Source: Myxococcota bacterium (GTDB lineage Bacteria; Myxococcota_A; Polyangia; Nannocystales; Nannocystaceae). Taken from it: DNA of 64,000 bases. Made by a program: the position numbers and the translations under genes. The stretch covers positions 32,001 through 96,000 of the forward strand of contig JBCCHT010000018.1 in the NCBI GenBank assembly GCA_039028615.1, read 5' to 3'. Shown in pieces: positions 26,636 through 33,177 of the stretch. The number at the start of each line of letters is the position of its first letter. The stretch's first letter is position 1. The notes under the pieces are model-generated. The model worked only from the letters and a program-made list of their open reading frames with translations. It had not been told where the DNA came from and ran no database searches.

Positions 26636-27454
26636 CTAAAAGGGGCAGGGGATCGGCAGCCGCGGGTTCATGAACGGCAAGACCCCCTCGACGTACGTGA
26701 AGTCTTCGTCGGGGATCACCACCCAGTGGTCGGCGAGCGGAGGTAGTAGCTCACCCTCGTTGTCGGTAACGGGGGCAGCTCCCGCTGCGAGGTAGTGGAT
26801 GTACAGCTCCGCGTTGAAGCCCGGCGGGAACTGGTTGCTGCCGCCTTCGATCGAGTCGCACAGGTTCGAGGTGAGACCGTTGTCGAAGGTCAACCACATC
26901 GTCTCCGGGCGCTCGGGGATTTGCGTGATGGCGACGACCCGAACCGGCGGCCCCGGCGGGTTGTAGCAGTAGTCGTTGCATTCCTCGTAGCAGTAGTCGT
27001 AGTCGCAGTACTCGTAGCAGTACTCTTCGCAGTTCCCGTCGCCGTTCATCTGGCCGACCTCCTGGTACACCGTCCCGTCGAAGCCGTAGTCTTCGTCGGC
27101 GGTGACGGCCGTGCTGAGTCGGAACTGGCGGGGATCGACCGCGTCCGCGGGCGCCAGCGCTTCGGTGAAGGTCAGCTGCAGCGTGAGGTTGTCGGTGAAC
27201 TGCGCGTCGATGAGCGCGGGCGGACCGGGGATGCCGGGCGGGATCGGAGGATCGACCGGGTCGACCGGGTCGTTCGGATCATTGGGGTCGTTCGGATCAT
27301 TGGGGTCGCTCGGATCGCTGGGGTCGCTCGGGTCGTTCGGATCGAACGACCCCGAGTCACCAAAGTCGTACGCGCGATCGACACAAGCGCCGAGGGTCAA
27401 AGACCCGCCCGCGATCGATACGTGGACCCAGCGACCGAATTTCAAACCAAGCAT
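26636..27454 (-). CDS. Hypothetical lipoprotein with DP(N/S/V) repeats and a Cys/Tyr-rich segment
   Basis: Lipobox LGAC; DPNDPSDPS... linker; CEEYCYEYCDYDYCYEECNDYC. Confidence 0.7.
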   Translation of the reverse strand: MLGLKFGRWVHVSIAGGSLTLGACVDRAYDFGDSGSFDPNDPSDPSDPSDPNDPNDPNDPNDPVDPVDPPIPPGIPGPPALIDAQFTDNLTLQLTFTEALAPADAVDPRQFRLSTAVTADEDYGFDGTVYQEVGQMNGDGNCEEYCYEYCDYDYCYEECNDYCYNPPGPPVRVVAITQIPERPETMWLTFDNGLTSNLCDSIEGGSNQFPPGFNAELYIHYLAAGAAPVTDNEGELLPPLADHWVVIPDEDFTYVEGVLPFMNPRLPIPCPF

Positions 27455-28977: not shown

Positions 28978-30150
28978 ATGGTCCTCGTGACCGCGCAGCC
29001 GAGCGTCATCATCGTCGGAGGAGGGGCGATCGGTCTCGCTTGTGCGTGGTCGCTGGCGCGACGCGGGGCTCGGGTCACCGTGCTCGAGCGCTTCGGCCAC
29101 GTACACGATCGCGGCAGCCATAGCGGCTACACCCGGGTCATTCGCCAGGCCTATCACGAGGGGTCTTCGTACGTGCCGCTGATTCAGCAGGCCGACGCGC
29201 ACTGGTCCGCCATGCAGCAGCGCAGCGGCCGTTCGCTCTTGCACCGCACGGGCCTGCTGCTCTTTGGCCCCGACGGTGGGCGGGACATGCTCGCGGCGAT
29301 CGAGACCTGCCGCGAGTGCGACCTGCCGCATACCCTGCACGACGGGATCGATGCGCGGGAGCGCTGGCCGTTTCGGATGCCCGACGACTGGATCGCCTGC
29401 TTCGATCCGTCCGGCGGCTATCTCTCCGTCACCGCGTGCATGGACGTCATGGCCGAGGAGGCCGTGCAGGCGGGGGCGCGACTGCGGTACGGCGTGCAGG
29501 TCGTCGGGATCGATCGCGGGCCGCGGCGTGGGGTTCGGTTGTCGAGTGGAGAGACGCTCACTGCGGATGCGATCGTGCTGGCGGCGGGGGCTTGGCTGTC
29601 GACGCTCGTGCCCTCGTTGAAGTCGGTGCTCACCGAGCGGCGGCGGATCCTCGCGTGGAGTACTCCGGCGGCCGAGCATCGAGCTGCGCTCGAGGCGATT
29701 CCCGTGTGGGGGGCGTTGCTCGACGACGGGTTCTATTATGGCTTTCCGTACAACGAAGAGGGGATCGTTGGGCTGAAGGTTGCCGTGCATACCTCCGATA
29801 CGCAGCCTTGGCTCGATCGGTCGGTGGAGGCGGATACCGTGGATCGGGGGGCGCATGCGCGGGATTTGGATCCGTTGCGGCGGGTGTTGGATGAGCATCT
29901 GCCGCTAGGGCGGGGGGAGTTTGGGGCTACGCATGCTTGTCTCTATTCTTGTACGCCGACTTGGGATTTCTTGATCGATCGGGATCCGGAGGATGCTCGG
30001 GTGATCTTGGCGGGGGGGTTTTCGGGGCATGGGTTTAAGTTTGCGCCGGCGGTTGGGGATTATGTTGGGGGGTTGTTGTTGGATGAGGGGGAGGTGCGGG
30101 GGGATTTGAGTCTGGCGGCGGCGGTGGGGGCTGGAGGTTCGCCGCGATAG
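28978..30150 (+). CDS. solA: N-methyltryptophan/sarcosine oxidase family FAD oxidoreductase
   Basis: IVGGGAIG, GSHSGYTRVIRQAY, ACLYSCTP, GFSGHGFKFAP. Confidence 0.85.
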   Translation: MVLVTAQPSVIIVGGGAIGLACAWSLARRGARVTVLERFGHVHDRGSHSGYTRVIRQAYHEGSSYVPLIQQADAHWSAMQQRSGRSLLHRTGLLLFGPDGGRDMLAAIETCRECDLPHTLHDGIDARERWPFRMPDDWIACFDPSGGYLSVTACMDVMAEEAVQAGARLRYGVQVVGIDRGPRRGVRLSSGETLTADAIVLAAGAWLSTLVPSLKSVLTERRRILAWSTPAAEHRAALEAIPVWGALLDDGFYYGFPYNEEGIVGLKVAVHTSDTQPWLDRSVEADTVDRGAHARDLDPLRRVLDEHLPLGRGEFGATHACLYSCTPTWDFLIDRDPEDARVILAGGFSGHGFKFAPAVGDYVGGLLLDEGEVRGDLSLAAAVGAGGSPR

Positions 30151-30225
30151 AGCGCGAGGCGGAAGGCCTCGGCGTGGGCATCCGGGCTTTGATGGTGTGC
30201 TTGGATGCGTGAGTCGGAGAAGGCG

Positions 30226-30349
30226 GGCCTAGGGAGTGGACACTTTGGCTTCTGCTCGTGGGCGCAGATTGATGGACCTGGGGAGCGGGCACTTGGGCTC
30301 TTCTCGCGGGTGCAGAATGGGAGACCTGGGGAACGGGCAACTAGGCTTC
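30226..30349 (+). repeat. Degenerate ~48-bp tandem repeats (units at 30226, 30275 and partial 30323; weaker copy near 30166)
   Basis: GGCCTAGGGAGTGGACACTTTGGCTTC / GACCTGGGGAGCGGGCACTTGGGCTC / GACCTGGGGAACGGGCAACTAGGCTTC. Confidence 0.7.
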
Positions 30350-30540
30350 GATGGGGGGAGGGGGGCCCTGTTGACGCCAGACGCCTACCCCGGACGTGCT
30401 CGTCGGGGAATTGGAGAGCGGGGTGCTTGTAGAGGCAGGTAGTCCCCGCCTGCGCGCGACCGGGGGCCCCTTCCGGCTACGCGGGTGCCCCCCGCGGCTT
30501 GAAGCCCGACTTTGATCGGGCTTCTGGTACGCATTGCTGC
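30319..30540 (+). repeat. Left copy of ~220-bp structured inverted repeat
   Basis: Reverse complement of 31819-32039; identical blocks 30344-30406 (63 bp) and 30453-30496 (44 bp); internal hairpin GAAGCCCGA-CTTTGA-TCGGGCTTC. Confidence 0.92.
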
Positions 30541-30652
30541 GTAGGCCTTTTGCTTGCCTTGTGGTGAGGGAATGCTTGCGTCGTTTCGGGGCGCAACCTG
30601 CCGGCTCGCCGGGCGCTCGGCGATCTGATATACCAGCCCCGGAGAAAACGGC

Positions 30653-31645
30653 ATGAGCGGTCTGGTAAAACTGCAACTGAGTGACCTGTTCGATGGAAGT
30701 GCTGATTTGATCGTACTCCCATGTTCGACAAGTGGCACGATCACGCCAATGGTTGCTGTCAGGCTGGTGGAATATAGGATACCGGGCCCACCTCCCATGA
30801 ATCTCGGAGATGTCAGTATGTTGCCATTCGATGGCGCAGAGAATATTGCCCAATATGTTGCGTTTGCGACGTCTGTCCGTGGGATGGGTTCAGATCGACG
30901 GGAGATCCGTCGCATAGGAGAACAACTAGGTCAGTTCACCGTTTCGAACGAATCCATCCGGACGATATCTGCACCCTTGCTTGGAGCCGGGGCGGGGGGG
31001 CTATCCAGTAAGGTCGTCGTTGATGCACTGGCGGAGGGGTTTCGTAGCTGTGCCGAGCGTGATGCAGTCTTGACGATCCACGTGTTGCACCGCAGCGTTT
31101 ACGAGAAGCTCAGTGCGGAGGCCGTGCAACCCGATGCGAACGATCGGTTACGTTCGGCGGTGCCGATTCGTATCTTTCTCAGCTACTCGGGCACGAGCGA
31201 GCGCCACAAGGGCTGGGTGGCTGAGCTCGGGATTTTCTTGAGACAGCAAGGGATCAACGCTCGTCTCGACCAGTGGCACCTGCGTAGAGGTATGGATATG
31301 CCGCAGTGGATGAGCAATGAACTTTCGATGGCCGATCGCGTCGTCATTGTCTCGGATGCGAGGTATACGGAAAGAGCAGATGGCCGCATGGGTGGAGTGG
31401 GTTGGGAAACCATGCTGATTCAAGGCGAGATGTCCGGCCTCTCGCCCGATTCGACCAAGTATTTGGTGATCGTTCGTGAAACAGAAATGGACGCTGGGAC
31501 GCCTAGGTACCTGAAGACCAAGTTCGCGATTCACTGGCCAGAGGGAGCCGACGACAATTCGCTCCGGGATGTGCTCATAACGGAACTCTACGAAGTCGAG
31601 TTGGAGCCGCCACTAGCCTCACGACCTGCGCGCTATCTCGTGTGA
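30653..31645 (+). CDS. Macro-domain + TIR/SEFIR fusion protein, candidate anti-phage/immune protein
   Basis: N-terminal SDLFDGSADLIVLPC and TISAPLLGAGAGGL (macro-like); C-terminal IFLSYS, LDQWHLRRG, ADRVVIV, GGVGWE (TIR/SEFIR); visibly lower GC and atypical codons. Confidence 0.8.
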   Translation: MSGLVKLQLSDLFDGSADLIVLPCSTSGTITPMVAVRLVEYRIPGPPPMNLGDVSMLPFDGAENIAQYVAFATSVRGMGSDRREIRRIGEQLGQFTVSNESIRTISAPLLGAGAGGLSSKVVVDALAEGFRSCAERDAVLTIHVLHRSVYEKLSAEAVQPDANDRLRSAVPIRIFLSYSGTSERHKGWVAELGIFLRQQGINARLDQWHLRRGMDMPQWMSNELSMADRVVIVSDARYTERADGRMGGVGWETMLIQGEMSGLSPDSTKYLVIVRETEMDAGTPRYLKTKFAIHWPEGADDNSLRDVLITELYEVELEPPLASRPARYLV

Positions 31646-31818
31646 CCCGGAGAGTGCTGATCGCGACCGACCCAGCTTTGGCCCCCGTACCAGGTTCTCA
31701 ATAGCGCCATTGGGTCTGGCCACGTCCGTATAGGCTCTCTCCTAGCCGGGAGTAGTCGACGTATCGTTCCTGTCAACGAGTGTTCGTGAGCGTAGCTGAG
31801 CCGCAGGCACCACTCAGT

Positions 31819-32039
31819 GCGGCAGTACGTGCCAGGAGCCCGATCAAAGTCAGGCTTCAAGTCGCGGGGGGCACCCGCGTAGCCGGAAGGGGCCCCCGGT
31901 CGCGCGGAGGAGGTGACTAGATGTTTCTACAAGCAGCGCGCTCTCCAATTCGCCGACGAGCACGTCCGGGGTAGGCGTCTGGCGTCAACAGGGCCCCCCT
32001 CCCCCCATCGAAGCCCAAGTGCCCGCTCCCAGGTCTCCC
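31819..32039 (-). repeat. Right copy of ~220-bp structured inverted repeat (degenerate 48-bp units continue to about 32130)
   Basis: Reverse complement aligns with 30319-30540. Confidence 0.92.
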
Positions 32040-32183
32040 CTTCTTCGCCCACAAGAAGAACTCAGGTTGCGGTCCCTAAGTCGAGCTTCGACGGTGCGTG
32101 CCCCACAGGTCCTCAACGGTTCGCTCGCAAGAAGGAAACCGGGCCTCCGCCGAACGCCTCCCGTTCCGCGATCAGAGCACCCA

Positions 32184-33077
32184 TCACTCATTCACCCGAG
32201 TCGCTCCACCTCGAGCCGCCGCCACCAACATCTTCTCCCGCCGCCTCCGCCTCCAAGCCCGCGCCCCCAAGATCCACCCCGGCATCACCAAAACCGCAAC
32301 CGGCGACACCGCCCCCACAAACCGAATCACCCCCACCAACCCCCCAACCAACCACCCCCCCGCATCCTCGACCGCCCGCCCAATCCGACTCCCAGCCCCC
32401 TCGGCCTCCGTCACGCTCACCCGACTCGGCGCCTCGACGACGAGCCCGATCGTAGCCATCGCCGCCCGCTGCTCCATGCCTCGCACTCGCGCATCGAGTC
32501 GCTCGATCTCCGTCCGCACCAACACCAAGCGCCCCTCGACCTCCAGTACGTCCTCGACGGACTCGGCCGTCTCGAGGATCGCGAGCAAGCGCTCCTCGAG
32601 CCCTCGCTGACTCCGTAGCCGCGCACCGAGATCGGCATGCTGCTCGGTGACGTCTTCTCCCGTGATGGTCTCCTGCAACAGCTCACCATGCTCACGCAGC
32701 TGCGCGAGCACGTGCTGGAAGCGATCGGCGGGCACCCGCACGGAGGTATCGATGCGGTACACGTGCTCGCCCGCACCCTGGGTGTCGCTCGAGGCCACGA
32801 AGCCACCGACCTGCTGGGCGAGCGCGGCGGCGGCTGTGGCTACGGCGCCCGGAGACTCGGCGCGAAGATGGAGGCTGGCGTTGCGAATGACGAGGCGCTC
32901 GTTATCGGGCATGTCCTTGCCTTCGAGCTTTGCCTGTCGATCGTCGGACGCGAAGGTCGCCGCGTCGGCCTTGGTGGCTTCGGCCGTGGGGGTGGCGGCG
33001 ACGGCCTCGTCTTTGGCTTGCTGACCGCATGCCGTGAGCAAGGAGGCGACCAGGGCGATTTTCAGGGGAGCATGCAT
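32184..33077 (-). CDS. DUF4349-family lipoprotein
   Basis: Lipobox LTAC; RLVIRNASL, VRVPADRF, EDVTEQHADL, LEVE..L..VR.EIE; C-terminal TM. Confidence 0.85.
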   Translation of the reverse strand: MHAPLKIALVASLLTACGQQAKDEAVAATPTAEATKADAATFASDDRQAKLEGKDMPDNERLVIRNASLHLRAESPGAVATAAAALAQQVGGFVASSDTQGAGEHVYRIDTSVRVPADRFQHVLAQLREHGELLQETITGEDVTEQHADLGARLRSQRGLEERLLAILETAESVEDVLEVEGRLVLVRTEIERLDARVRGMEQRAAMATIGLVVEAPSRVSVTEAEGAGSRIGRAVEDAGGWLVGGLVGVIRFVGAVSPVAVLVMPGWILGARAWRRRRREKMLVAAARGGATRVNE

Positions 33078-33177
33078 GCTCCCAGCATGGCCAGCACCGC
33101 GCATGGGGAGGTCATGCCCGCATCATCCGACGGTCATGGTTTGGTCATCGAGCCAGGGTCGCTACACTGCGCCTCGA

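Follow-up and report, generated by a model that had tools for sequence, protein, structure and literature searches.

Hairpin repeats in a myxobacterial chromosome are surrounded by strand-specific compositional halos that reach into ordinary host genes. We describe them from one locus in a 64,000-nt stretch (G000:C18:32001-96000, hereafter the window, in which unprefixed positions are counted) of the source genome G000 (12.27 Mb, 94 contigs, 96.7% complete). In the window, two inverted hairpin arms enclose a single gene with a SEFIR/TIR domain and lie between two convergent host genes, both of which are shifted towards G and T on the strand of the adjoining hairpin. On its own, the element is a relic of a familiar type. 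What was not expected is the halo, which the initial annotation of the locus missed: near-saturated, strand-polar change, set by the neighbouring hairpin, affects the silent sites of dozens of ordinary genes in this one bacterium. The empty site serves as a control and, with the young copies in relatives that have no halo, provides a time series made by nature. Should the cause be mutational, the hairpins would constitute a natural position-specific mutator in bacteria, and the halos a confounder for codon-bias and skew analyses. No description of the repeat family or of such halos in bacteria was found in the literature searched, most subscription papers lying outside the search.

Left of the pair, the halo covers 29600-30330 on the plus strand, which is the hairpin's strand, with a GC skew of up to +0.50 and an AT skew down to -0.39; G+T is 0.695 in the 400 bp upstream, the 99.97th percentile of the genome. 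The right halo (32000-32600, minus strand) is C/A-rich on the plus strand, where GC skew falls to -0.51 and AT skew rises to +0.27, and has a G+T of 0.69 on the hairpin's strand. A solA-like FAD-dependent oxidoreductase gene (28978-30150, plus strand; Pfam DAO, 1e-49) runs into the left halo, is G/T-shifted over its last ~150 codons and scores highest for the C-depleted state among all 9092 genes called. Within its last 80 codons, C occupies 1 of 47 four-fold sites and T ends 18 of 19 NNY codons, against 20 of 52 and 4 of 17 in the orthologue of the congener G001. The DUF4349 gene on the other side (32184-33104, minus strand; Pfam 4e-52) is G/T-shifted in its 3' part, and its last 80 codons have C at 2 of 53 four-fold sites against 23 of 60 in G001. 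Comparison of the solA-DUF4349 interval, which the initial annotation had proposed, revealed an empty site: G001, the only one of five congeners with a close DUF4349 orthologue, has the stop codons of its two host genes 3 bp apart, and therefore the 2-kb interval of the window is a derived insertion. The shift is absent from these empty-site orthologues.

The same gradient accompanies the hairpin family, of which G000 holds a first subfamily and two others, F and G. In successive 100-bp bins upstream of the copies, G+T on the hairpin's strand is 0.70, 0.63, 0.61, 0.58, 0.55 and 0.51, and is down to 0.48 by 900-1000 bp (60-64 outermost copies). The genome's 99th percentile is exceeded at 42 of 60 copies, and 23 of the 43 most skewed regions adjoin a first-subfamily copy. 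For genes directed towards a copy, the 300 bp nearest to it give four-fold C of 0.20 and G of 0.66 (1472 sites), NNY T of 0.54-0.61 and NNR A of 0.05; the corresponding genome-wide silent-site values are 0.51, 0.39, 0.16 and 0.16, and 1700 convergent gene pairs give 0.50, 0.39, 0.14 and 0.16, with a gene-end control flat too. First and second codon positions are barely shifted, and the silent-site shift spans ~500 bp beside hairpins. Genes on the other strand show its mirror image at few sites (206 four-fold sites within 450 bp). The shift depends on the preceding base: G/C enrichment is 5.2-6.3-fold after G, 2.0-3.5-fold after C and 1.1-1.8-fold after T, T/G enrichment is 2.7-3.0-fold after a 5' T, and the third base tends to copy its 5' neighbour. 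High scores for the C-depleted state are reached by 103 of the 9092 genes, 36 of which, among the genes listed, lie within 1 kb of a first-subfamily copy. Subfamily F has a weaker shift and subfamily G hardly any at silent sites. Beyond G000, copies in G004 and G008 and a hairpin pair on an unrelated metagenome contig (L238) have the halo; G001 and G002 show it weakly, and none is evident around the young elements of G023, G087 and L228.

The two window arms are 212 nt each and 90% complementary, and a further 40-nt pair (80%) extends to 30291 and 32067. The left arm (30329-30540, plus strand; subtype B of family AE) has its hairpin core at ~30359-30484, and the right arm (31819-32030, minus strand) at ~31875-32001. 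Much of the initial description stands: the arms share identical blocks of 63 nt (30344-30406) and 44 nt (30453-30496), they enclose one foreign-looking open reading frame (ORF; 30653-31645, 55-58% GC against ~68% around), and the host genes on both sides, DAO on plus and DUF4349 on minus, converge on the inserted interval. It had the cassette fill the whole gap, but G/T-rich sequence separates the arms from the host stop codons (~140 bp left, ~115 bp right). The G6-A-G6 tract and two small stem-loops that it described are present but belong to one subtype and vary between copies, the core being the central rod of ~130 nt. It also reported no target-site duplication, and none is seen at the pair: CTAG, the target duplication of related IS1182 elements, occurs at 30229 and 30341, left of the hairpin, and is absent from the outer right flank. 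Two tandem 48-nt copies of subterminal sequence, 77% alike (30245-30340, plus strand; family D2), lie in the G/T-rich stretch on the left, and tandem duplications resembling them replace the terminal repeat in relatives. Contigs from one DNA sequencing run, possibly the assembly's source, match both flanks and the cargo; none spans a whole arm, and the orientation of the cargo therefore rests on the assembly.

The repeat is not unique to this locus and recurs throughout the genome. Iterated nhmmer searches of G000 recovered 93 copies of a 128-nt core, and subfamilies F (20 copies) and G (15, plus one doubtful) bring the total to 128 copies in three subfamilies. Both were discovered through the same skew in their flanks, and their kinship with the first subfamily lies in shared motifs and architecture, the model score being not significant. 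The rod-like unit measures 128-172 nt. Tabulating copy number, orientation and enclosed genes, as had been suggested, grouped 129 hits into 68 clusters (31 paired, 18 at contig edges and 19 others). Neighbours within 8 kb are inward-facing in 31 cases, outward-facing in one and tandem in 30, so 31 of 32 opposite-strand pairs face inward. Interiors measure 0.3-6.6 kb among the pairs listed, some pairs mix subfamilies, and tandem arrays occur. A codon-model caller, which also missed the SEFIR gene of the window, called no gene in 24 of the 31 paired clusters.

The consensus folds into a rod without branches. Of its 25 pairs, 11 vary at both partners, and two T.G pairs are invariant. In an alignment of 32 hand-chosen copies covering the subtypes (27 from G000), from which the structure was itself derived, 96.5% of cells are paired and covariation is 0.310, against 0.117 when shuffled and at most 0.079 when slid. 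The hairpin is a structured nucleic-acid element with compensatory pairs, and the earlier view of a non-autonomous, multi-copy, structured element without its own transposase is supported. No Rfam family matched, the best hits reaching 14.5 and 18.8 bits where the gathering scores are 50 and 45, and a scan found nothing promoter-like and no more terminator-like sites than chance predicts. A resemblance to attC and K-turn consensus sequences was dropped, partner motifs being missing.

The window pair is best read as a relic pair of insertion sequence (IS) ends of the IS1182 type. The metagenome locus L228 is an intact IS1182 element, in which CTAG, a ~16-bp terminal repeat, the hairpin, a transposase (NF033551, 382 bits; cut-off 270), an inverted hairpin, a terminal repeat and CTAG follow one another. 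Its left end matches the left arm at 85.4% (E 7e-37) and the right arm at 84.0% (E 3e-34), each over 144 nt, and homology to the IS1182 end runs ~25 nt beyond the hairpin base. A second IS1182 element in another flank, L229, is cut by the contig end and shows 89% protein identity. Like the window pair, L228 has inward hairpins around an interior. The congener G001 holds a ~200-bp derivative (L116) that has kept both terminal repeats, is bordered by CTAG at either end and contains half-hairpins. Genus g17 has many copies of a divergent hairpin (11, 11, 45, 4 and 0 matches in five genomes); an IS1182-type repeat start lies ~60 nt upstream of it in 6 of 14 aligned loci, and four others carry tandem-duplicated end segments at that position. 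Loci L345 and L351 have inward hairpin pairs around a transposase (E 0.003-0.009). Unlike an IS1182 element of the CTAG-flanked subgroup or its derivatives of the MITE kind (miniature transposable elements with inverted repeats), the window pair lacks a transposase, a recognisable terminal repeat and a target duplication, and the family comprises 128 copies in three subfamilies with tandem arrays. It either descends from IS1182 ends or shares its hairpin with them, and today lacks these three features of membership. The initial annotation had named a match to the end of a known IS family as fatal to its reading; this applies in part, the homologues being subterminal parts of an IS1182 element.

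Outside G000, the hairpin model found 36 copies in G002, 10 in G004, 5 in G001 and, as weak matches, 4 in G023, and 56 of the 61 genomes had none; it misses divergent subtypes, and G021 was negative with it and positive with another query. A pattern scan yielded 49 metagenome loci, 68 genome loci and one viral locus, the last without a model score. The model was scored on 114 of these 118 (L300, L321, L326 and L332 left out), with strong hits on six metagenome contigs and three loci titled Myxococcales. G023 has 40 near-identical hairpins (96-100%), in inward pairs in 16 of 19 fetched regions, five of which had been picked because they looked paired. These pairs sit inside another terminal repeat (101 ends) and enclose an IS1380 transposase fragment (E 7e-8, below cut-off); all 7 of the distinct elements are bordered by CTAG at either end, and 4 of the 7 have a perfect 6-bp duplication. 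The G023 copies (L155-L194) look like a young burst of ~1.25-kb IS1380-derived MITEs from two left ends, with ~100 terminal repeats and a CTAG-centred 6-bp target; an intact transposase was not found there. In a third setting, the same inner stem precedes a four-helix-bundle gene at 12 loci of three Planctomycetota metagenome-assembled genomes and six metagenome contigs, at a model E of ~1e-3 to 1e-2 after preselection by a pattern taken from the core. All six genes tested match PF05635, and several cassettes lie between inverted 7-mer arrays. That three carriers of unrelated kinds share one conserved fold implies a binding partner so far unrecognised.

Several details of these carriers were recorded in passing. 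In the Planctomycetota cassettes (L279, L280, L282, L284, L313, L335, L295, L318, L320, L323, L307 and L316), the basal stem covers the ribosome-binding site of the four-helix-bundle gene; L279, L280 and L284 lie between inverted 7-mer tandem arrays with C/A-rich sequence upstream, a polarity opposite to that of the G000 halo. Four-helix-bundle genes were not found in G000, G002, G004 or G023, and G001 gave two sub-threshold matches. In G009, an IS1380 element (L198:560-1070) has a G/T-rich tandem tract, a hairpin and a 121-aa familyless ORF between left end and transposase; this ORF had been suspected of being four-helix-like, a suspicion dropped when it matched no Pfam or NCBIfam family. In G002 (L123-L134), hairpin copies are grouped with kinase-TPR genes, a reverse transcriptase, IS66, Rpn-family nucleases and a ~200-aa protein that recurs and has no Pfam or NCBIfam match. 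At G004:C56:171188-173092 (L392, L387), an IS256 transposase interrupts one hairpin of a subfamily-F pair, with 31-nt tandem duplications and G/T-rich flanks outside the pair.

These carriers also weigh against a simple descent from IS1182, as the homologous hairpins in IS1380-type MITE ends and before four-helix-bundle genes mean that the hairpin is not an obligatory part of IS1182 and may have reached the window site by another route. Seven IS1182 copies in G087 have the same end type and no hairpin, and both window arms resemble the left IS end. A relic of the terminal repeat, which begins with GAG, was found at 0 of 129 candidate copies (up to 4 mismatches, 200 bp upstream). At 30229-30236 (plus strand), CTAG followed by a GAG-like start could be a decayed one, though an alignment with intact IS1182 ends did not bring it into register. 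A tblastn search with the L228 transposase found no IS1182 transposase in G000, and the sole DUF772 match is an N-terminally incomplete IS5 transposase; the mobilisation in trans suggested initially is thus doubtful for the present day. Other partners were also rejected. IS1380 has full-length relatives without the hairpin and left no PF13701 match or terminal-repeat pattern in G000, IS110 is represented by one gene on contig C94 with no hairpin near, and Rpn nucleases stand beside some G002 copies and have 0 matches in G000 and G023. A search for IS91-type Y2 transposases gave no match, its control query matching nowhere either.

The other half of the earlier "REP/REPIN- or MITE-like" label fares worse. 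Like repetitive extragenic palindromic (REP) sequences, their paired forms (REPINs) and bacterial interspersed mosaic elements (BIMEs), which are associated with REP-associated tyrosine transposases (RAYTs), the family is made up of numerous extragenic palindromes, frequently placed after the end of a gene, and includes inverted pairs and tandem arrays, and G000 has two RAYT-like HUH genes. Pairs in G000 are 0.3-6.6 kb apart, however, compared with <130 bp for REPINs, the units are ~130-170 nt long, and no copy flanks a RAYT; by the definition in bioRxiv 10.1101/2021.07.10.451892, from which these REP and REPIN properties are taken, the pair is not a REPIN. The linkage to HUH or RAYT genes that the initial annotation thought worth checking was not found: no hairpin copy lies near C13:40455 or C8:232339, the RAYT flanks are single-copy in the genome, and a RAYT partner was discarded, the two genes being neither linked to copies nor co-distributed with them. 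The genes themselves (L021, G000:C13:40455-41393; L034, G000:C8:231440-232339) are 66% identical, fall below the NF047646 cut-off, and each sits inside a mirrored G/T halo with short single-copy repeats flanking it; 144-nt tandem copies lie downstream of the C13 locus. Four further sites show a strong G/T or silent-site shift with no hairpin family nearby (G000 C83:6000-6600, C30:65900-66700, C28:51100-51500 and C35:115100-115400).

The cargo (30653-31645, plus strand) encodes 330 aa, an N-terminal half without family, with macro-domain-like hints at E 0.06-0.6 only, and a SEFIR/TIR domain (Pfam SEFIR 5e-11, TIR_2 6e-11). Like the SEFIR-TIR anti-phage proteins, its C-terminal half matches PADLOC bSEFIR (7e-43, residues 164-326) and the PDB entry 5y8e (2e-21), but the protein is shorter than the bSEFIR model (330 aa against 412 positions), of which positions 37-196 alone are matched. 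It is a predicted anti-phage gene. Its relatives number 585 at E up to 0.001; the top 120 of them share 52-66% identity over full length and those named stem from several phyla, hence the gene was likely acquired horizontally; its GC content is 55-58% in surroundings of about 68%.

By a narrow measure, we find it probable that relic IS1182 ends, a likely SEFIR acquisition and local strand-specific mutagenesis caused by the hairpin together account for the locus. Building on the observed copies, inward orientation, compensatory pairing, empty site, IS1182-end match and halo, the history would run as follows. An IS1182-type element landed between two genes that converge; its transposase and its terminal repeats were likely lost, and it likely gained the SEFIR gene. 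Stalling, nicking or breakage with resection would then repeatedly leave the hairpin's own strand single-stranded nearby, where it would suffer deamination of C and A and be copied by a non-proofreading polymerase with a tendency to repeat the 5' neighbouring base, perhaps the single DinB-like enzyme of G000 (one PF00817 gene). Over the long term, this would overwrite the terminal repeats, create short tandem duplications and shift silent sites for ~500 bp. The hairpin itself stays conserved, which suggests that its fold is still selected or recognised by some factor.

Loss of C and A from one strand is the textbook signature of deamination in single-stranded DNA, but deamination by itself cannot increase G at four-fold sites. 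Error-prone fill-in of such DNA would fit the halo composition because the shift depends on the 5' neighbour, and the third base copies that neighbour as if the incoming nucleotide paired with the next template base, which points to the hairpin's strand as the template. According to PMC5027486, Pol IV of P. aeruginosa and E. coli likewise prefers a 5'-GX-3' context and promotes CG>GC changes; DinB misalignment is cited in PMC7198004. In yeast (PMC3681665), structure-forming inverted repeats increase mutation on either side of them by way of resection and a translesion polymerase, and single-stranded DNA with translesion synthesis is the proposal common to these cases and ours. The G000 halo differs from both in being fixed, near-saturated, strand-polar and ~0.5 kb wide in a bacterial chromosome, and in being known from sequence only. 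As to how the strand is exposed, a single central break does not explain lone copies that are skewed alike on both sides. A number of observations count against hairpin-caused mutagenesis. The preference of Pol IV for a 3' C (GXC), reported in PMC5027486, is not seen in G000 halos. The halo is not specific to this hairpin, because strong halos also occur on the 3' side of lone copies (G+T 0.60-0.65 over 600 bp, n=21), at the RAYT-like loci and at some sites where no repeat was found; other high-scoring genes adjoin F or G copies, the RAYT-like pair of genes or sites of this last sort. Moreover, it is an equilibrium composition and not a mutation spectrum, and selection on RNA remains a rival.

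A broader version of this reading, less likely than not, makes the hairpin a self-standing cis module common to several phyla, which rides the ends of unrelated carriers (IS1182, IS1380-type MITEs and four-helix-bundle cassettes) as a polar, site-directed mutator. It would expose its own strand, error-prone synthesis would rewrite ~0.5 kb of host genes and erase the carrier's ends, and >100 fixed mutational hot spots would be left in the chromosome. Rather doubtful, in our view, is a related account in which the hairpin is an independent REP-like module copied as single-stranded DNA by a trans-acting nuclease and spreading into intergenic positions and the ends of unrelated mobile elements, with the IS1182 link as hitch-hiking and nicking as the source of the halo. 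The occurrence of one core on all three carriers (12 loci for the four-helix-bundle genes), close IS relatives without hairpin, tandem arrays and mixed-subfamily pairs in G000, two invariant T.G pairs that mark one strand, and the mirrored halo around both RAYT-like genes would all suit it. Yet neither of these genes is flanked by the hairpin, and their flank motifs occur nowhere else in the genome; the copy-rich G002 and G004 gave no match to the G000 RAYT, whereas the copy-poor G003 and G005 did; 28 RAYT-homologue loci of other genomes are mostly flat, as read by eye; and the Planctomycetota matches are weak (E ~1e-3 to 1e-2) and derive from a core-based pattern. That the hairpin instead acts as RNA is unlikely. 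It would fold in transcripts from either side, insulating a gene or hiding a ribosome-binding site, and the halo would be selected, for instance through Rho avoidance on the entering strand and Rho loading on the leaving strand. Consistent with this, the nearest upstream gene is directed into the hairpin in 49 of 60 cases, the AAGGAG that precedes the start codon in the Planctomycetota cassettes is part of the basal stem, and the hairpin's strand folds better than shuffles (z -2.6, compared with -2.0 for the other strand). However, the shift follows the hairpin's strand even in genes transcribed away (the 206 sites above), varies with the 5' base, falls off smoothly and does not occur at young copies whose hairpins are intact, and the Rfam, promoter and terminator searches described above offer no help.

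The initial annotation favoured a dedicated platform that captures and swaps defence genes, which we consider very unlikely. The window cargo, a SEFIR/TIR gene of foreign composition, is what such a platform would carry, enclosed stretches vary over the 0.3-6.6 kb already given, and G002 copies adjoin Rpn-family, AbiEii-like, group II intron-like and IS66 genes. Against this, most paired clusters (24 of 31) are without a called gene, the 29 ORFs in or near clusters are by Pfam housekeeping, kinase, transposase or of no family, with nothing else recognisably defensive (PADLOC covered the window cargo alone), and no swap between strains was observed. It is extremely improbable that the repeats are copies derived from retron multicopy single-stranded DNA, like the msr/msd repeats of Nannocystis exedens, with reverse transcription producing the halo. 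A review does mention duplicated msr/msd sequences without a nearby reverse transcriptase for Retron-Nex1 (PMC6868368), and G000 has one retron-like reverse transcriptase with a long upstream hairpin, but the repeat profile found nothing better than E 0.02 in that region, outside the hairpin, and copies sit in DNA-transposon ends. The retron-like locus (L011, G000:C16:159650-161500) has a short terminal inverted repeat and lies between two genes that look WGR-like by eye. Elsewhere in the window, an ORF at 26636-27454 contains a DPND/DPSD tripeptide-like repeat tract and a Cys/Tyr-rich stretch.

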